Made by a program: the position numbers and the translations under genes | Part shown: in pieces, positions 1 through 21,526 of the stretch | How positions within the stretch are numbered: position 1 is the first letter of the stretch | Layout of the letters: each line of letters begins with the position of its first letter | Source: a virus | Strand: one strand, 5' to 3' | IMG/VR virus record: IMGVR_UViG_3300046810_000256 | Location: 1-64,000 of that record | DNA length: 64,000 bases | Notes under the pieces: model-generated | The model's input: the letters and a program-made list of their open reading frames with translations, nothing else | Told to the model about the DNA's origin: nothing | The model's database searches: none

Positions 1-262
1 CCACGGACTGGATCAACTGCCCCTTCAGATGCTCCTGATAGAACTGCCGCGCCTTCTCAAACGCGACTTGGCCAGCCTCCGCGTCTGGCTTCTGTGGCTG
101 GCCCAGCAGTGCGCGAATCGCCAGCCCGCGCGTGCTGGCGCGAATCTTCTCGATGGGCGACAGCGATTCACCGGTCAACCCGGCCCGGATCTGCAATAGC
201 TCAGCGCTCAGGCGTGCCCGCTCAATCGGCGACAGCACGCCCGGTTGGCTCAAGTCACTCAT
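1..262 (-). CDS. Partial virion-associated/polyvalent protein (runs off the left edge)
   Basis: ATG at 262 overlaps the stop of the 774-aa gene and the frame is open to position 1 (MSDLSQPGVLSPIERARLSAELLQIRAGLTG...). The N-terminus resembles that of the 774-aa protein. Confidence 0.75.
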   Translation of the reverse strand, partial: MSDLSQPGVLSPIERARLSAELLQIRAGLTGESLSPIEKIRASTRGLAIRALLGQPQKPDAEAGQVAFEKARQFYQEHLKGQLIQSV

Positions 263-2579
263 CAAAACCCCCAAAAATCGAATCCAGCAATGCGGTGTTG
301 GCCAGCGCCTTCTCAAAGGTCTTGCCGTCGCGCAGCGTCTTGAAAAGCGCGTCGAACGCGGCGCCGATGCGCGCGCGCTCTTCTCCCTCCGGATAAGGCT
401 TGAATGGCAGGCCTTGCTCGGGGAAGTAGTGGTGTTTGTTGTCAGCCAGGCAGCTTAGGTAATCGTTCTGGCGATCCATGGCCGTCAGCTTGTCTTCCAG
501 ATAGGACTGGAACGCCCGCGCCGCCATTTCAGGGGTCGATGACCAGTATTTGCCTTCCTTGGAGTTGTCCAGCAGTGCCGCTTCGGCCATGTAGCGGGAG
601 ACGCCTTTTCCGGTGTTCAGGCGAACTTCTGTGGTGCCTTCTGGCGAGAAATACGCGGCGGCGATGGTGCGCCAGTTCTTTTTGTACTTGAGCGACCGGG
701 CGTCATTGCGCTTGCCAAAATAGGCGTCGACCGCCAGCACAGCCGCTTCAGCATTTCCGGCAGCCTTGATGCGTTGGGCAATGTCATTGCGCGGGGTGTC
801 GACGTTCAAGCGGGCATTGCCGAACGTGCGGGGCGTGAACTTGATTGTCTCGGGTAGCCGGTGATCGCCTTCGGTCAGTGCCTGCTTGAGCCCAACAAAG
901 GCGTTTCGGATTGGCCCCTCCGGCAGCAGATCGGGCTTTTCGACTCCAAACTCATCAGCTGCGCCCGCCTCGCCGCGTAGCAAGCCCGGCAGGATGTTGT
1001 CCATCGCGTGGAAGTGCTCGTGACCCAAGCCACCGCCGCCGTTCATTTTGGTGATGTTGATCGCACGTAGCACCGGTTCGTACTGCGCAGTGGCGGCGCC
1101 CTTCCCGCCCTTGCCACGGGCGCCGAACGCCAGCCCCAGGCGCCCATCGAAACCCAGGTGCTTCTCGTCGATGCCGAGGACGTCGGCCATGTCCATCATG
1201 GCGCCCGCTGACTGCTCTACGTGCCATTTGGAGCTGTCGCGGTCATCCAGTACCCAGTTGCCAGACTGCACCGCCCGGAAGCCGCACAGCTGCTGCAACG
1301 AGCGCGTAGAGTTGACGGCCACCGGACGCCCGCCTTTGCGGTCGAACTTGTCCACCACCTTGAGCGCGAAGGTCTGGCGCTTTTTGGTCGGTGCCTTGGG
1401 CGCGCCCTCGATCACGTCGCCGCCCTTCTTGTCCGCCCACTCCCATTCCTTCGGGTCACCGGTCAGTGCGTTGGACACATGCCGGGCGAACGTCTCAGAA
1501 CCCGAACGGCTGCGGAACATCAGCGCTTTGACGAACTTATCGCCCATGGACATCCATGCGCGATTGACTGGCGAGTTCAGGTTGCGGGCCTTGGCCACGC
1601 CCATGATCTCGGCCCGCTCCTGATAGAGCGCGGTGCGCGCCGCCGTCAGCTGCTCAATGGCGGGCTTGTTCTTCTCCAGAAGAGCGGCCCACGCTTTCAT
1701 CGCCTCGTTGTAGGCTTTCTTGGCGTCACGCGCCGCTTGCTCGTGTTCCGGACGAATGCCCCAGCCACGGCTCACACGGTTTTCGAGGTCGCGCTGCGCC
1801 TTGTTGTTCTGGCTGCTCGCCGTGTACATGGCGGTTTGCAGAGTGTTCTGATCGGCTTCCAGCGTGCGGATCTGCTCCGTCATGCCTCGGGCGCGGTCAG
1901 TAACGTCGCCGTAGCGCTCCGCTTCGTCCGCATCCAGCTGCGAGCCCAGCAGCTCGTCGCGGATCTCGTCCAGGGTGGCCACAACCTCTTTCGGGGTCTG
2001 GCACAGCTCCAGGCGCGTGCGCAGCGTCTCCAGACCCAGCACGTAGGCACGGCGCGCCGCCGGGCTGTCTTCGGTCGGTTCCTTGGCAATGGCGGCGTAA
2101 ACACGATCCATCAGGAACGCGGCGGCGGGCTCGGTACCGCCTGCTTTCATCGCATCCCAGTCGACCACGCCGAACAGGTTGGACTTGACCACCAGCGCAC
2201 GCGCTTCGCGTGGCGTTTCTTCAATGGCGTCGAAGTCGATATCGGTAGCGCGCAGCATGCGGCCTTCGGCGCGGGCTTTGCGGATCGCGCCCGCGGCCTC
2301 TTCTTTGCGGCTACCGGGGATATAACCGACGTCGGCATAGCGGTAGTTGGGACTGTTGGGATCGTCGCTCAGGCCGTCGTCTGCGGCTTGCTCAGCGGCA
2401 GTCACCGGGTCGACTTCCGGCGCCGACACCGGCTTACCGGTCAGTTTGCTGCGGATGGCGAGCGCTTCGGCGCTGGCGCGGACTTTCTCAAGTGCCTTGA
2501 GCGCACCGCTGATCAACATCTGGCGCAGGGCCAGAAGCCGCGAACTCAGGCGGGCTTTCTCGATGGGGGAAATTTGCAT
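255..2579 (-). CDS. Large polyvalent protein with zincin-like HExxH motif and C-terminal LPD1 domain (DdrB-like, probably packaged)
   Basis: LGHEHFHAMDN metallopeptidase motif. YWSSTPEMAARAFQSYLEDKL...NDYLS...PYPEGEER..I..AFDALF matches the LPD1 pattern. Late promoter upstream. Confidence 0.7.
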   Translation of the reverse strand: MQISPIEKARLSSRLLALRQMLISGALKALEKVRASAEALAIRSKLTGKPVSAPEVDPVTAAEQAADDGLSDDPNSPNYRYADVGYIPGSRKEEAAGAIRKARAEGRMLRATDIDFDAIEETPREARALVVKSNLFGVVDWDAMKAGGTEPAAAFLMDRVYAAIAKEPTEDSPAARRAYVLGLETLRTRLELCQTPKEVVATLDEIRDELLGSQLDADEAERYGDVTDRARGMTEQIRTLEADQNTLQTAMYTASSQNNKAQRDLENRVSRGWGIRPEHEQAARDAKKAYNEAMKAWAALLEKNKPAIEQLTAARTALYQERAEIMGVAKARNLNSPVNRAWMSMGDKFVKALMFRSRSGSETFARHVSNALTGDPKEWEWADKKGGDVIEGAPKAPTKKRQTFALKVVDKFDRKGGRPVAVNSTRSLQQLCGFRAVQSGNWVLDDRDSSKWHVEQSAGAMMDMADVLGIDEKHLGFDGRLGLAFGARGKGGKGAATAQYEPVLRAINITKMNGGGGLGHEHFHAMDNILPGLLRGEAGAADEFGVEKPDLLPEGPIRNAFVGLKQALTEGDHRLPETIKFTPRTFGNARLNVDTPRNDIAQRIKAAGNAEAAVLAVDAYFGKRNDARSLKYKKNWRTIAAAYFSPEGTTEVRLNTGKGVSRYMAEAALLDNSKEGKYWSSTPEMAARAFQSYLEDKLTAMDRQNDYLSCLADNKHHYFPEQGLPFKPYPEGEERARIGAAFDALFKTLRDGKTFEKALANTALLDSIFGGFDE

Positions 2580-2610
2580 GGTGTACAGGCCTGATCATTT
2601 GCAGGCCCGT

Positions 2611-2651
2611 ATTTTGGGGCGCCAACGGTGGGCGCCCCGGAGGGTATTTGC
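2611..2651 (-). promoter_or_regulatory. Late promoter motif (GCAAATA-N28-CAAAAT)
   Basis: One of nine sites with identical 28-nt spacing. Confidence 0.6.
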
Positions 2652-2672
2652 GTGATTACGGGGTGTGGACGA

Positions 2673-3077
2673 TCAAACCTCACCAGCAACGAAATGCGGC
2701 GCGCCGTCGACGTCCTTGACCACGCCAGCCGCATACAGCACCAGCTCAATGCGGCGGGCGGCGGATCCTTGCACGAACGCAGCAATGGCGCTCATGTCGG
2801 CCCGGCCACCTTCAGGCAACACGGTTTTGTAGAAAGACTCCCAGGCCTTGGCCAGCGCCCCACGCACGTCCGAGTAGGTCGAAACAGCAAAGCGGCGCTT
2901 GAACACGCCCCCGCCGATATCGACCGTGTGCAGGTGCGTGTAGCCCTTCTGGCTTCCATCGTCATCCAGGCAACGGATGCAGCCGCACGGCCCGGCGACA
3001 AAAGCGCCCATCAGGCAGTCGGCGAAGGCCAGCACAGGCTTGAGGAATAGGCGCTTGTCATCTTCGAACAAATCCAC
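2673..3077 (-). CDS. Hypothetical protein
   Basis: 134-aa ORF directly after the par genes with GGAG RBS. Confidence 0.6.
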   Translation of the reverse strand: MDLFEDDKRLFLKPVLAFADCLMGAFVAGPCGCIRCLDDDGSQKGYTHLHTVDIGGGVFKRRFAVSTYSDVRGALAKAWESFYKTVLPEGGRADMSAIAAFVQGSAARRIELVLYAAGVVKDVDGAPHFVAGEV

Positions 3078-3080
3078 GGC

Positions 3081-3449
3081 TTACTCCTTGTTTTCGGCGG
3101 CCTTGGCTTCTTTCTCTTCGAGCGCATCCAGCGCATTGCCCAGCAGCTCGTGCAACACCTTAATGCCGCGCTCTTCTGCCATGCGGTAGTACCGATCATG
3201 CATCGGAATAGGGATCTTGATGTTCAGCTGCTTTTTCGGCTCCGCGGCGTTGAAACGCTTTGTTTTCGCGGTCTGCTCGGGCTTGGCTTCGCGGGAATGG
3301 AAGCCGTTATCTTTAGCTACCTGCGAGATATCTTGTTCTATCTCTTTGGTAACTACTGGCGCAGCAGTAGCGGATTTGGGCTTGAAGTCGTCGAGCATTG
3401 CAAAGGCATTCGCGGCCTCGGTTGGTTCTTTTGGTTGATCTCCGCTCAC
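3081..3449 (-). CDS. Ribbon-helix-helix centromere-binding partition protein (type Ib, ParG-like)
   Basis: C-terminal KQLNIKIPIPMHDRYYRMAEERGIKVLHELL RHH pattern after a flexible N-terminus; overlaps the parA stop. Confidence 0.75.
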   Translation of the reverse strand: MSGDQPKEPTEAANAFAMLDDFKPKSATAAPVVTKEIEQDISQVAKDNGFHSREAKPEQTAKTKRFNAAEPKKQLNIKIPIPMHDRYYRMAEERGIKVLHELLGNALDALEEKEAKAAENKE

Positions 3450-11818: not shown

Positions 11819-12262
11819 ATGCAAATCATGGCTTCAGTCAGCGGGTACACCGGGGGAAGCGTCACGCTCGTGGGATTCATTGATCCTGCTACGGGAGTCC
11901 TGGCAATCGTCAAAAGCGTGAAGTTTCGGGAGGTGGCCGATGATGGATTCGCCTTCGTCACCAACACAAAGACAGAGGCCTACGATTGCCTCTTCACTGA
12001 AGAACACTGGGCCCAAGCGATTCGCGATTACATGATCGCCGAAGGAAGTCAGACGCTGGCTATCGCCGATGATGCTACGCGCTGGGCGCCCCGGCTTGAA
12101 ACGGATGGTGTCGATGAGAAGGGGCAGAAATATCGCCTGCCCGCGGACTTGCAGAATGGTGAGGTGGCTGTGCTGGCCATGGTGCATTTCCAGCAGCGCC
12201 AGAAAGCGCTAACCATCGCAGATGACGCGATGGATGAATGGTTTGACCTTGTGATGATTTAA
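11819..12262 (+). CDS. Hypothetical phage-plasmid protein, convergent with repA
   Basis: 147-aa ORF with GAGGT RBS; one of the few plus-strand genes. Confidence 0.7.
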   Translation: MQIMASVSGYTGGSVTLVGFIDPATGVLAIVKSVKFREVADDGFAFVTNTKTEAYDCLFTEEHWAQAIRDYMIAEGSQTLAIADDATRWAPRLETDGVDEKGQKYRLPADLQNGEVAVLAMVHFQQRQKALTIADDAMDEWFDLVMI

Positions 12263-13284
12263 GGCGCGGGGTCTTTCCACTTGTCGCCCTGGGAACGGTG
12301 AACCATCCGCAACATTGGCCCTTCTTTGCCGGGCTCTTCTGCAAGGGAATACTCCGGCAAGTCGTTATCCGTAATCAGCTCCCTGAGCAGCCGATTGAAT
12401 TCCTTGAGCGTGCCGTTGCTCCCGCTGCGCTCATATATCGTTTTGAACCCCCACAAAGCGGAATCTTTGCCCGCGGCCTTGCGCGCTAGCCGGTAGACAA
12501 AACGACCTATGCCTGACTCACGCAGGAAGTAGTCCGGATGCACTGTCAGTACGTCCGGTTTCGTCCCCTTTGTGATTTCGTCATACATCCAGTCGGCCAG
12601 CTTGATTTCGATATATTCGATTTTCTTGGTCTTGGCGTTACTGATAATTTTGCTCGGGCCTATCAGGTTCTCGCCTTCCGTCACCGTGCGCATTTCACCG
12701 CGCAACATGTTCGTGCGCTCGATGCCCACATACGTCGTCTGTAGCCGTTGGAGCGCTCCAGCAACGGCATCCTTCTGATTGCCACCGTTATCCTTGCGGC
12801 AAAACTTCAGCACGTCCCCAATATGAGGGCGGAAGATTTGCGAAGGCTTTTCACCTTTGCCGTCTCGATATCGGTTCATGGCTTCGGTTAAGTGCGATAC
12901 CGCCATCAGAACTATGTCGTAGTCCCATACCGAGGCCATGCCATACGGGCCGGAAGACACTTCGACAAAGCCGTCAGGGAGGTCATACCGGATGACTGAG
13001 TTTGCGCGCTTATCTTTCTTCGACAACCTGAACACCGCCACGTCCATGGTGCCGCGATTGTCGCGAGCGCCAACGTCGTACAGCAGAGGCGTGAAGAAGT
13101 CGCCTTGGACGGCGGGGATAGATTTCTTGCGCCGGTCAGGTTTGACAGGCTGACTCACTGGCTCCGCGGGGGGCGCGGGTGGGTAAATTACGGGATTCTG
13201 ATCATCGGACGGGAGCAGATCCGCCTGGGCCGCTCTGGCCTGCATATCCGCGATTTTCTGCGCAATTTTGTTCGGCGCGGCCAT
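12259..13284 (-). CDS. repA: Plasmid replication initiator (RPA/RepA family)
   Basis: MDVAVFRLSK...GMASVWDYDIV...RFVYRLARKAAG motifs; adjacent iterons. Confidence 0.85.
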   Translation of the reverse strand: MAAPNKIAQKIADMQARAAQADLLPSDDQNPVIYPPAPPAEPVSQPVKPDRRKKSIPAVQGDFFTPLLYDVGARDNRGTMDVAVFRLSKKDKRANSVIRYDLPDGFVEVSSGPYGMASVWDYDIVLMAVSHLTEAMNRYRDGKGEKPSQIFRPHIGDVLKFCRKDNGGNQKDAVAGALQRLQTTYVGIERTNMLRGEMRTVTEGENLIGPSKIISNAKTKKIEYIEIKLADWMYDEITKGTKPDVLTVHPDYFLRESGIGRFVYRLARKAAGKDSALWGFKTIYERSGSNGTLKEFNRLLRELITDNDLPEYSLAEEPGKEGPMLRMVHRSQGDKWKDPAP

Positions 13285-18061: not shown

Positions 18062-19258
18062 TTATTCGTTGAAGGGTTCGCCGTAAGCGTCCATGCCGTT
18101 GTCATTGAGGTGCTGGCGGCCCTTCTCAGACAGGAAGTAGATACCCTCGGCCACGTCGAGCATCGACTGCGCCAGCAGAGTGGCCAGCGCATCGTGGTCG
18201 GTGATTTCGTCCTCAGACGCTGCGTCCGCCTTTGCGATGGCCACCAACTGATCCAGCGCCTTGTCATCCATCTGGCGGTCTTTCGCGCTGTCGAGCAGCG
18301 CGATGGCCGTCCGGAAGGATTCGGCCATACGCATTTCGTGCAGTGCCTGCTCTACGTTGCCTTCTGCCAGGTTGATTGGGCCATTGTTCTCGACCACCTC
18401 AAGGCCGACTTGCAAGTGGGCGATTGCGCCAGCTGTAGCTGCGTCGTCGAGCATGGTGCCGCTAGCGGCGACAATTTCCCGCGCCGCCACGTAGGCGCTG
18501 GCCAGCGATAAACCCTTCGGCGCTTCTTCAGTCGCTTGGGGTGCCGCGTCGAGCATGGCAGCGCACGCGCGGCCTTTGTCGTTGAGTACGTTGGCGCCCT
18601 TGTTGGTGTAACGGTCGATCAAACCGAGATCGATAAGCGAGTCACGCCCGGCCTTGCTCGGCACGTCGCCATCTTCAAGCACCTGGCCTTCAGCTTTGGC
18701 CAACTTGGTCAGCACGTCGCGGGCCGCATCGTCCAGGCTGGCCAGCTCCGTCGGTACCGAATCGGTCATTGCGCCGCCCAGCTTCGATACCAGTTCAGCA
18801 ATAGTCGACTTGCGGGCGCTGATTTGAGTGTCGAGCTCACTCACCTGTTGCGCCAGTGCGTCGACCTGCTTGGGCTTTGGCGTGGACATACCACGAGGCA
18901 ACGCTACAGCCTTGCGGGCCTGAGCTTTCTGGAAGGGAACCTGATTCTTTTCAGCCATGGCAGCAATCTCGCCCACTGCCTTTTCAACGTCGGAATGTTC
19001 CTTGAGTGGCTTCACCGATCCATTGAGCAGCACCTGATAGATATCACCGGTACTGTTCACTCGCAGGGTGACGGTCTGGCCACTGGCAAGCATCAACATG
19101 GCTTCGCGGTAGGTCGTATCGGAACTGCGGCGAGGTTTCTGACTGAATTCAGACGAAACAACGGATTGTCCCGCACGCCCCATCTGCTGACTGATCAGTT
19201 TGATTGCCTTGTCAGCACCAGCGGGCGAAGAGAAGTCCAGGGTATTGGTTTTGGGCAT
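18062..19258 (-). CDS. hdf: Hdf-like (DarA-fragment homologue) head protein with C-terminal winged-helix-like repeats
   Basis: SGQTVTLRVNSTGDIYQVLLNG DarA_N-like domain and coiled coil. The likely start is ATG 19258, behind a late promoter. Confidence 0.65.
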   Translation of the reverse strand: MPKTNTLDFSSPAGADKAIKLISQQMGRAGQSVVSSEFSQKPRRSSDTTYREAMLMLASGQTVTLRVNSTGDIYQVLLNGSVKPLKEHSDVEKAVGEIAAMAEKNQVPFQKAQARKAVALPRGMSTPKPKQVDALAQQVSELDTQISARKSTIAELVSKLGGAMTDSVPTELASLDDAARDVLTKLAKAEGQVLEDGDVPSKAGRDSLIDLGLIDRYTNKGANVLNDKGRACAAMLDAAPQATEEAPKGLSLASAYVAAREIVAASGTMLDDAATAGAIAHLQVGLEVVENNGPINLAEGNVEQALHEMRMAESFRTAIALLDSAKDRQMDDKALDQLVAIAKADAASEDEITDHDALATLLAQSMLDVAEGIYFLSEKGRQHLNDNGMDAYGEPFNE

Positions 19259-19335: not shown

Positions 19336-19384
19336 GCCGCAAACCCTCCCGCTTGCCTGTTCTTTCGCTGCGCTTCAGAACAGG

Positions 19385-19950
19385 CAAGCCCTCCCGGCCC
19401 CGTAAAGGTTTCGAGTGGTTCGCCTTGCTACTCACTTTTGGAAGAATCGGCGAGATTCCTGCCCCCATTGCCCGCTGAGTAGACACTTCATAGACCTGCT
19501 GCATTACCGGATCTTGTCCTGTGGGACGATCCCCGCGGCGTTTTTAACGTGGTGCCGGTCTATTCCCCTTGCCCACATGGTAATGCCCCCAGGTTGCGAG
19601 CCTGGGAAGGCGTGAAGCGCGTCGCACGGTCGGCCCTGTGCAATGAATCCCCATTGGGCCGTACAGTCGCAAAGACGGGTAACAATCGCTTGATATCCAA
19701 CCCCATCTATCGCATACGCTTACGTCCATTTCGGGCGCACGAAAACAACTCGGGCGCGCGAAAAAGCGCGACTGCTCGATGAGTGAGGGGGCGAATCTGT
19801 AGACAAGGACGCGAGATCGCGCCAGAATTGACCTACAGAGTCGAGTTCCCCCGCCGCCAAAGCAAAGGATTCCCCTCGACTCAAGGCTAAAGGAGTTTGC
19901 ACCTCCGCATTAGCCCTTCAAGACCCGCTTATAGCGGGTCTTGTCGTATC
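19385..19950 (+). ncRNA. Candidate large structured non-coding RNA (~560 nt)
   Basis: More than 12 stems, crossing helices and G-U pairs favouring the plus strand; 3' hairpin 19919-19943; no credible ORF in 850 bp. Confidence 0.55.
19919..19950 (+). terminator. Terminator-like hairpin
   Basis: CAAGACCCGCT-tat-AGCGGGTCTTG followed by tcgtatct. Confidence 0.6.
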
Positions 19951-20106
19951 TGGCGCGCAGAATAACCGCGAGAATCATCAATACGCCATAGTGGCCATTT
20001 GTACAGCCTGTATAAAAACACAAGTCTATCCCCGTTTATCCCCGGACAAACGGGGGCGCTGAAGCCCCCTATCTGCGCCGTCTCCCGACGAACGGTCGTC
20101 CTCTCC

Positions 20107-20637
20107 TTAACTCGGCAATGGCTCACTGGTAGGCGCGTTCAAGCTGTCCTTGTGCGTATGGCGCTGCACGCTGATCCCGTCGCTGGTGATGTCTCCGCCG
20201 GTCTGCGTTACCGGCCCTTTGATGCTCAATGCGGTTGCAATGGCTGCTATTGACTCAGGTGTCAGCACCAGACTGGTACCGCCGACGACAAGCGCAATTT
20301 TCTCGCCCGCGTTGATGGTGAATACCTTGTCGGCGTTGAATTCGAAGTTATCGTGGTTCCAGCGCCGGGTTGATTGCTCGTTGCCGGTGTTCACCGGGCG
20401 GTGTCCCACGATGATCGGGTAACGCTGATCACCGTTGCGGAACGCCACCCACACCGGCATGCCAACAACCACGCGGATTTCCGTGTTGGTTGAGTCGCAG
20501 CCAATCGGGTAGCACATTTCGGCGAGCGGGAACGTCGAGGCGCCGTCGGTGTAGGGCGGGATCTCCACGCGGATCTCCCGGCGTTCACGGTTGGCGTCCA
20601 CTGAGCGAACAAAGCCCGGCGCGTAATTAGGTAGCAT
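20107..20637 (-). CDS. Baseplate central spike (P1 gp5/GpV-like)
   Basis: OB-fold VWVAFRNGDQRYPII, beta-helix repeats, terminal HTH (His-x-His) metal motif; likely start ATG 20637. Confidence 0.8.
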   Translation of the reverse strand: MLPNYAPGFVRSVDANRERREIRVEIPPYTDGASTFPLAEMCYPIGCDSTNTEIRVVVGMPVWVAFRNGDQRYPIIVGHRPVNTGNEQSTRRWNHDNFEFNADKVFTINAGEKIALVVGGTSLVLTPESIAAIATALSIKGPVTQTGGDITSDGISVQRHTHKDSLNAPTSEPLPS

Positions 20638-21526
20638 TGACCAGTTTCCCCATCCACAGGCGGCTGGTGCTCTCCATCGCGCCGGTTTTCTGCATAGCCG
20701 CGTGTGCGGCGGTGATGACCACAAGATTCTCCCCGCCTACCGACAGCACACTACCGGCCTGAATCTGCTGGCACTGCTGGGAGTCGACGGTCTTGGTACG
20801 CACGAGCACGCACGAGGCGTTGCGCAGCTGGCGCTGATCGCCGCGCGGCATCAGATTGATTACCCTCGACTCGCCCATCTGCCCGGTGACGATAGCCCCG
20901 GTGTCGCCCACGCTGTAGAAGCTCGGGACTTGCTGAAGCTCAAGAAACTCGCTGTCCACCTTTGCACTTGAGTCCACCTGGCCGATATCGTCCATCGGTG
21001 CCTGCTTGGCGAGGTCGGTCAAGCGCACAACCTGCAACTTGCCACCGACCAGCACCAGCGCGGCGCCTTCTTCTTGCAGCACCCTGGCCACTCCGTAACT
21101 CGGTTGAGTGCCACGAAAGCAGCTGAAGCGCGGTACCGAAAAGTCGCTACCAATGCGCAGATAGGCGCCGCAACTGCGCAGGATGGCGGAGAATGCCGCG
21201 TCCTCCATCACCACGGCCTGCGCCAGCGGTTCGGCCAACGGTGCGCAGCTGGCCAGCAACGCGATAACACTCATTGCTTGCTGCTGGTCTTTGCCCTGCA
21301 CTTCACCCAACGGCGGCGCCTTCTGAGTTTTGACGATCTTGTAAGCCAGATTCTCCCGGCCAGACCAGACAGTGACGCCCCGCTTCAGCTTGGCTTCCAA
21401 GCCGTCGATCAGCTTCACTGTGAACTCCAGGCTGCGTGGGATCGGCGTCAAGTCCGACCGGCTCACCCACCGAATAACCACGTCGGTGGGCAGCTGGTCG
21501 CCGCTCTCACTTAAGTAGACGTTCAT
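20627..21526 (-). CDS. Baseplate hub protein
   Basis: Position before the spike; RSDLTPIPRSLEF motif; likely start ATG 21526. Confidence 0.65.
   Translation of the reverse strand: MNVYLSESGDQLPTDVVIRWVSRSDLTPIPRSLEFTVKLIDGLEAKLKRGVTVWSGRENLAYKIVKTQKAPPLGEVQGKDQQQAMSVIALLASCAPLAEPLAQAVVMEDAAFSAILRSCGAYLRIGSDFSVPRFSCFRGTQPSYGVARVLQEEGAALVLVGGKLQVVRLTDLAKQAPMDDIGQVDSSAKVDSEFLELQQVPSFYSVGDTGAIVTGQMGESRVINLMPRGDQRQLRNASCVLVRTKTVDSQQCQQIQAGSVLSVGGENLVVITAAHAAMQKTGAMESTSRLWMGKLVNAT

Follow-up and report, generated by a model that had tools for sequence, protein, structure and literature searches.

An 848-bp gap between a baseplate-spike gene (stop codon at 20107) and a DarA_N/Hdf-like gene (start codon at 19258) was analyzed in an 83-kb element that looks like a Pseudomonas-type phage-plasmid, and this gap is probably a functional ColE1-type (theta, RNA-primed) replication origin of the element. 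It displayed homology to the origins of ColE1-type plasmids, a common layout of parts, a conserved RNA structure, and purifying selection. The kind of origin is known and its carrier is unusual: ColE1-type origins have rarely been reported in phage-plasmids.

The gap and its plasmid homologs

The window, i.e., the whole stretch of DNA analyzed, comprised the first 64 kb of an 83,006-bp IMG/VR virus record, a circular-type element with a 127-bp terminal repeat. The element looked like a phage-plasmid because it carried tail-fiber genes, an SNF2 helicase gene, and a plasmid RepA gene (PF10134); nearly all of its genes lay on the minus strand. The plus-strand GC skew was negative almost everywhere from 1 to 83006 of the genome, and its cumulative curve fell steadily with no turning point; this was not diagnostic, since one-directional replication (minus strand leading) and the one-sided gene orientation would fit it equally. 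A LexA-box-like palindrome CTGTTCTTTTGAACAG was present at 64310-64325 of the genome, just beyond the 64-kb window.

As the initial annotation had described, no credible ORF was found over about 850 bp: the gap contained only short ORFs, which one-base indels among relatives would break. Searches for PAAR and RepL pointed to no alternative function of the gap; RepL (PF05732) was not found in the 83-kb genome, Rop (PF01815) had no match there at E<=1, and neither rop nor mob genes of mini-plasmids were present near the gap. The gap, its parts, and its neighbors are listed in Table 1.

Table 1. Features of the predicted origin and neighboring genes, with positions in the window
Feature	Position	Strand	Basis or remark
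Plasmid RepA-type initiator gene	12259-13284	-	PF10134
DarA_N/Hdf-like anti-restriction gene	18062..19258	-	PF18788, E 1.1e-13; phrog_1620, E 2.5e-32; downstream neighbor
Conserved non-coding stretch, oriV to DarA-like start codon	19259..19350	-	mean pairwise identity 0.83-0.94 among relatives
13-bp inverted repeat around loop GAAGCGCAGCGAA	19351..19389	.	predicted RNA-to-DNA transition (oriV) at 19373/19372
Predicted RNA II pre-primer, ~580 nt	19373..19951	-	MAFFT collinearity, nhmmer, and covariation; ends inferred by alignment
G-rich tract GGGAGGG	19389..19396	-	17-24 nt upstream of predicted oriV; ColE1 counterpart GGGGGGCGG
Hairpin GGCCC...GGGCC with GGGG in loop	19632..19660	-	corresponds to the G-rich loop at 'position -265' in ColE1
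RNA I promoter-like site TAGACA-17 nt-CAGAAT	19800..19828	+	consensus scan
RNA II 5' module: short leader plus stem-loops I, II, and III; RNA I target	19829..19952	-	three-hairpin fold, z -5.44
Predicted antisense RNA I, ~113 nt: short 5' tail plus three stem-loops	19835..19947	+	fold -46.2 kcal/mol, z -6.80
RNA II -10-like hexamer TATTCT	19959..19964	-	aligns with TAATCT of ColE1 and TAATCT/TAAGCT of Oceanimonas/Aeromonas
Conserved block upstream of RNA II -10	19985..20014	-	palindrome TACAGGCTGTA; candidate regulator-binding site
Baseplate-spike gene, gpV-like OB-fold	20107..20724	-	PF04717 and phrog_11; upstream neighbor

When the gap was searched with sensitive blastn settings against the 72,556 plasmids of PLSDB, the hits were (i) a P. 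fluorescens plasmid matching the gap at 91% over its full length and (ii) unannotated regions of 3-6-kb plasmids from Zymobacter, Oceanimonas, and Aeromonas matching window positions 19355-19704 at 67-72%, with E 2e-21 for Zymobacter pZB5060 and E 3e-13 for Oceanimonas pOCEGK02 (accession number NC_016747); the phage collection gave no blastn match. In pZB5060, a Rop gene lay beside the match and convergent with it, as in ColE1. Plasmid pOCEGK02 had no annotated rep gene, its origin matched >1,200 plasmid records (chiefly small plasmids of Enterobacterales), and it is entered as 'ColE1-only' in the supplement to Ares-Arroyo et al. 2021 (PMC8683028). When six small plasmids alone, with no phage-plasmid sequence, were used to build an nhmmer profile, it had a single strong match in the 83-kb genome (19710-19342, minus strand; E 1.6e-41) and a weak second match, collinear with the first, at the promoter and stem-loop I.

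The RNAI family of Rfam (RF00106) scored 73.8 bits in ColE1, 57.2 bits in the Oceanimonas plasmid (above the cut-off), and 45.5 bits in the Aeromonas plasmid (cut-off 47), and the plasmid RNAI lay on the equivalent of the window plus strand, ~110-210 nt to the right of the conserved core. A three-hairpin module of the window sits at this very position, and RNA II is therefore placed on the window minus strand. No RF00106 match was found in the window at the gathering score or E<=10, and such a match was also missing from the Rop-encoding Zymobacter plasmid; together with the sub-cut-off score in Aeromonas, the latter indicates that RF00106 misses divergent members of the family. More generally, the Rfam search suggested by the initial annotation returned nothing meaningful in the window at either the gathering or a permissive threshold. 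Direct sequence similarity to ColE1 itself was weak, the local (Smith-Waterman) match falling on the G-loop hairpin at a collinear offset with z 4.0.

Anatomy, strand, and predicted operation

The sequence comparison by MAFFT was applied to the window together with ColE1 and the ColE1-type origins of Zymobacter, Oceanimonas, and Aeromonas, and these were collinear throughout, with an alignment-inferred distance from promoter to oriV of ~580 nt in the window vs 555 nt in ColE1. The -10-like hexamer TATTCT of RNA II was invariant across the five phage-plasmid relatives, and no -35 was recognizable at 16-18 nt from it. The block at 19985-20014 was nearly invariant in the five relatives despite variable flanking sequence, and its 11-bp palindrome TACAGGCTGTA (20002-20012) was centered ~56 nt upstream of the inferred RNA II start. 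Two exact copies of this palindrome were present in the 83 kb, the second at 74216-74226 of the genome (outside the window) inside a gene of 385 aa; a repeated operator or late-promoter element was thus unsupported, the sole other exact copy being within coding sequence.

The GGGG loop of the G-loop hairpin was located at -276 to -279, ~277 nt upstream of the predicted oriV; the hairpin aligned with the ColE1 hairpin GGGCT GAACGGGGGG...AGCCC, and its stem covaried (helices 3 and 4). The G-rich tract took the form (A/G)GGAGGGC in 11/11 aligned sequences. The region of the 13-bp repeat aligned with the ColE1 ori GCCTATGGAAAAACGCC in the MAFFT alignment, ColE1 oriV GCCTATGGAAAAA/CGCC falling on GCCTGTTCTGAAG/CGCAGCG of the window, and the switch from RNA to DNA would accordingly lie near 19373/19372, within the loop of the repeat. 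This loop motif, AGCGCAGCG, was invariant in the 11/11 sequences, the first position of the loop being G in one relative, and the hairpin arms changed by compensation across genera (CTTGCCTGTTCT, CGAGCCTATCTT, and CTCTCCTATCTT) with folding kept. Another candidate for the ColE1 oriV, AAAAACGCC at 19546-19538 on the minus strand, was ruled out; the multiple alignment puts the ColE1 oriV at 19373, a position that gives the expected RNA II length.

The predicted start of RNA I, 19835, lay seven bases past the -10 hexamer of its promoter-like site, whose hexamers were kept in relatives (CAGAAT or CAAAAT in the -10) around a spacer of variable sequence. The last stem-loop of RNA I (19920-19942) is a predicted terminator hairpin with a weak U tract. 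In layout, and likewise in position and strand relative to the conserved origin core, RNA I matched the RNAI that Rfam detects in ColE1 and in the Oceanimonas and Aeromonas plasmids. A covariance model (R1) of the 5' module, built from six phage-plasmid copies only, recovered (i) the module of phage G405 (see below) with 67 bits and E ~1e-16 and (ii) positions 1051-1158 (minus strand) of the Aeromonas plasmid L003 with 24.4 bits and E 6e-5, exactly antisense to the Rfam RNAI match there. Among nine diverse copies of the module, 21/40 pairs were changed on both sides vs 1-4 with slid partners, in an alignment fitted to the model and thereby favoring the structure.

For the origin-proximal half, 11 sequences (five phage-plasmid copies plus six small plasmids) were aligned, and an RNAalifold consensus of 75 pairs was obtained. 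In this half, 96.5% of cells were paired vs 84.0% in shuffles (0/500 shuffles reached the observed value), and 29/75 pairs were changed on both sides vs 5-10 when the 3' partners were slid by 1-3 columns; the covariation alignments include related sequences. Pairing was 96.5% when read on the minus strand and ~84% on the plus strand, and compensatory stem changes also occurred within the phage clade. The G-U asymmetry (113 G-U cells of the covarying structure on the minus strand vs 8 on the plus strand) together with the covariation favors the minus strand for the conserved long RNA.

These results support the initial annotation in part. All nine helices named in it were found, eight fully Watson-Crick paired and one (19413-18/19428-33) with five of six Watson-Crick pairs plus one plus-strand G-U; pairing was exact in both the 13-bp inverted repeat (19351-63/19377-89) and the 11-bp hairpin (19920-42); folding was better than that of dinucleotide shuffles on both strands, with -232.1 kcal/mol (z -4.08) on the plus strand and -254.7 kcal/mol (z -5.44) on the minus strand. 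A long structured non-coding RNA locus, now ~580 nt in length, was supported by its conserved and covarying helices, the covariation among homologs that it had proposed to look for being present in both halves. The main RNA, which it had placed on the plus strand, is assigned to the opposite strand, and its 5' and 3' ends were consequently wrongly placed; of the listed stems, said to include several with plus-only G-U pairs, just one had such a pair. The supposed 3' terminator-like hairpin corresponds to stem-loop I of RNA II and also to the last hairpin of the antisense RNA I, the supposed 5'-end 13-bp repeat encloses the predicted oriV instead, and the single plus-strand RNA gives way to two overlapping antisense RNAs predicted at the locus. 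The plus-strand GCAAACC at 19339 is present, but nothing supported a role for it. The proposal of crossing helices or alternative conformers fits the known behavior of RNA II, and the crossing helix GCATTACC/GGTAATGC covaried (helix 9); the other, ATAGACC/GGTCTAT, was absent from the consensus structure and had one pair lost in one relative. What had been taken for an RNA of the virion gene cluster appears to be a replication element placed amid virion genes and not virion-related.

Contigs assembled from RNA libraries covered 19552-19704 (X19), 19345-19652 (X20), and 19458-19783 (X16); they carry neither strand nor end information, may stem from relatives or DNA carry-over, and were not counted as evidence of transcription.

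The operation proposed for the origin, including the transcript ends, the RNase H and DNA polymerase I steps, and its firing in this element, is carried over from the well-studied ColE1. Minus-strand transcription of RNA II would begin near 19951, the three stem-loops would form at the 5' end of the RNA, and the downstream hairpin would display the GGGG loop ~277 nt ahead of the origin. An R-loop would persist near the origin, the G-rich RNA remaining hybridized to the C-rich template; host RNase H would cut RNA II at ~19373, and DNA polymerase I would extend the cut RNA toward the DarA-like gene, i.e., in the direction of nearly all genes. RNA I, the exact complement of the RNA II 5' end, would pair with the three loops by 'kissing', alter the fold of RNA II, and block primer formation, thereby setting copy number and incompatibility; this control would work without a Rop helper, none being encoded. 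Points against a functional origin are the missing RF00106 match, the -10 without a -35, the weak U tract of RNA I, the narrow host range ascribed to classical ColE1 replicons (PMC8683028), and the presence of RepA; the origin may be dispensable, since the element also has this RepA initiator.

Relatives, an unrelated phage, and competing explanations

The closest relatives of the element were an 81-kb P. fluorescens plasmid and an 82.7-kb P. azerbaijanoccidentalis contig. The origin was found in P. fluorescens DR133 plasmid CP048608, the P. azerbaijanoccidentalis contig, and the IMG/VR contigs L010, L012, and L029, with ~90% identity over the whole module and likewise between the spike and DarA-like genes. 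Across five relatives, mean pairwise identity was 0.86-0.97 in the gap vs 0.58-0.87 in the flanking genes, the gap being the best-conserved 700 bp in a 5-kb comparison. The identity minimum within the gap coincided with the overlap of RNA I and RNA II, as expected for an incompatibility determinant. Outside the gap, identity among relatives fell to 0.58-0.64 at the 3' end of the spike gene (window 20100-20300) and to 0.27 in a segment of the DarA-like gene (18500-18600), where the contig of one relative had 384 additional bases; these two segments may be variable or host-interaction regions.

Carriers of the RepA gene (PF10134) were this element, the P. azerbaijanoccidentalis copy, and L008, which has no origin; two origin-bearing relatives, namely the complete 81-kb plasmid CP048608 and a 94%-complete viral contig, lacked the gene, an indirect hint that replication may proceed independently of a plasmid-encoded initiator. 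At the RepA spot, CP048608 encoded an HTH protein of 186 aa whose RepL-like match was below threshold, and this plasmid may therefore have another initiator. In L008, a more distant relative, the place of the origin between spike and DarA-like genes was taken by a PAAR-motif gene (2664-2926, plus strand); searches of the 83-kb genome (G000), CP048608, and G003 detected no PAAR gene. Among 401 Pseudomonas species genomes searched, the origin was detected in one, which was the relative already known.

A complete origin of the same type was also identified in G405 (L036-L038), a 43,280-bp terminally repeated siphovirus-like temperate phage with 66% GC and with integrase, terminase, major head, and tape-measure genes; this phage is unrelated to the phage-plasmid and carries the origin type independently. 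Its origin (L035:1300-1930, minus strand) adjoined the integrase gene (2033-3244) and had no dar gene downstream. G405 and the phage-plasmid shared the identical leader CCAGATACGACAA, the RNA I promoter hexamers, and the same core, with stems compensated, and the RNA II promoter of G405 was the better one (TTGCCA-18-TAATCT). A metagenome scan for the motif of leader plus stem-loop I returned 74 loci, of which only L069, L086, and L078 (the last being the G405 contig) were true members; the scan yielded no small circular plasmid carrying exactly this type of origin. L086, a 1.8-kb metagenome contig, had at 144-266 (plus strand) a very similar RNA I/RNA II 5' module (85 bits) followed by unrelated downstream sequence, and it may represent a recombinant or an origin of another type.

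This distribution bears on the possibility that a ColE1-type mini-plasmid once recombined into the phage-plasmid and survives in the gap as an inactive remnant, with RepA performing all replication. The element's own RepA (PF10134) initiator, the RNA II promoter lacking a -35, an RNA I that Rfam does not recognize, and the absence of rop, mob, or other mini-plasmid genes nearby would suit a remnant, but such a history appears improbable given that conservation across five relatives is higher in the region than in the protein genes on either side, that promoter hexamers, G-loop, G tract, and oriV loop are invariant or compensated, that stems changed in a compensatory way inside the phage clade, that RepA is missing from two origin-bearing relatives, and that the unrelated phage G405 keeps the same complete module.

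An RNA pair with a role other than replication, RNA II being the regulated leader of a DarA-like operon or RNA I a weapon against competing ColE1-type plasmids, is slightly less probable again. RNA II would run into the DarA-like gene with no clear terminator between, the locus is within the late-gene region and on the same strand, and incompatibility in ColE1 systems requires nothing beyond RNA I; nevertheless, the most invariant features are those that serve priming only (the G tract, the oriV loop in its compensated hairpin, and the G-loop hairpin), and the G405 module adjoins an integrase gene and has no dar gene downstream. A new class of large plus-strand phage RNA in the manner of GOLLD and ROOL, as the initial annotation had envisaged from the long, highly structured region without a credible ORF and in keeping with zero matched Rfam families, is very improbable in view of the significant homology and collinearity with ColE1-type origins, of the G-U pairs and covariation that put the long RNA on the minus strand, and of a predicted plus-strand product that is a short RNAI-like antisense RNA.

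Known systems and meaning of the probable origin

A ColE1-type origin thus remains the favored reading, and the region was compared with several known systems. It shared with ColE1/pMB1 the order and spacing of parts: a -10-like hexamer for RNA II, three 5' stem-loops lying under a ~110-nt antisense RNA with its own promoter, a G-rich loop ~270 nt and a G tract ~20 nt before oriV, and ~555-580 nt from RNA II start to oriV. It differed from ColE1 in that (i) RNA I of the phage-plasmid was undetected by RF00106, Rop was lacking, and the RNA II promoter had no -35; (ii) oriV of the phage-plasmid lay in the loop of a 13-bp hairpin, while ColE1 forms none obviously; and (iii) the carrier was a phage-plasmid of 83 kb and not, as for ColE1, a small plasmid in multiple copies. 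Rop is absent from many accepted ColE1-type plasmids too, Rop/Rom being optional in the family.

The mini-plasmids of Aeromonadaceae and Halomonadaceae shared 67-72% identity with the phage-plasmid over the origin-proximal 150-400 nt, the oriV hairpin with loop motif AGCGCAGCG, and common helices with compensatory changes. Their 5' RNA I/RNA II module was unalignable by sequence, as expected between incompatibility groups, the Aeromonas copy (24.4 bits) being the exception, and they differed further in being 3-6 kb in size and carrying mob, toxin-antitoxin, or rop genes. P1 is likewise a phage-plasmid with more than one replication system (oriR/RepA for the plasmid and oriL/RepL for the lytic state), and the DarA/Hdf-like gene of the element shows kinship with P1-like phages; however, both P1 origins need a protein initiator, whereas the element had no RepL (PF05732) and a RepA of another family (PF10134). 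The likeness to GOLLD and ROOL is confined to a large, structured, and phage-borne RNA, this region having no Rfam match and being homologous to plasmid origins.

Classical ColE1 replicons are regarded as narrow-host-range and mostly as belonging to Enterobacterales, and the largest ColE1 survey holds a single Pseudomonas entry, a 1,350-bp record (PMC8683028). Phage-plasmid surveys recognize plasmid functions by replicase and partition proteins, and the terms ColE1 and RNAI do not appear anywhere in the main one (Pfeifer et al. 2021, PMC7969092); an RNA-only origin would therefore be invisible to them and left as an annotation gap. Judging by titles and abstract openings, none of the papers searched that name phage-plasmids together with ColE1 or ColRNAI reports such an origin in a phage-plasmid, and no paper among those searched combined Pseudomonas phage-plasmid replication with RNA II.

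A broader proposal is tentative and, on balance, rather unlikely: temperate phages of Pseudomonas-type hosts might have taken over ColE1-type RNA-primed origins as their own replicons, with the origin, not RepA, as the shared core replicon of this lineage and with regulator-dependent firing as a plasmid-to-lytic switch. Loss of the -35 from the RNA II promoter and gain of the conserved palindrome ~56 nt upstream would make firing dependent on a phage or host regulator, the origin could serve as the switch from a low-copy plasmid state to lytic amplification, and read-through from the late tail operon may provide a second input to it. If true, a genus in which ColE1 replicons are considered non-functional would harbor a phage origin that is primed by RNA and controlled by an antisense RNA.

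If the origin were inactive, the gap would be an ordinary captured plasmid fragment. If it is active, the range of ColE1-type replication would come to include large phage-plasmids and Pseudomonas-type hosts, replication and incompatibility modules would have a common exchange route between phages and mini-plasmids, the persistence of relatives with no RepA gene could be explained, and a compact protein-free origin, potentially useful for Pseudomonas vectors, would be at hand.
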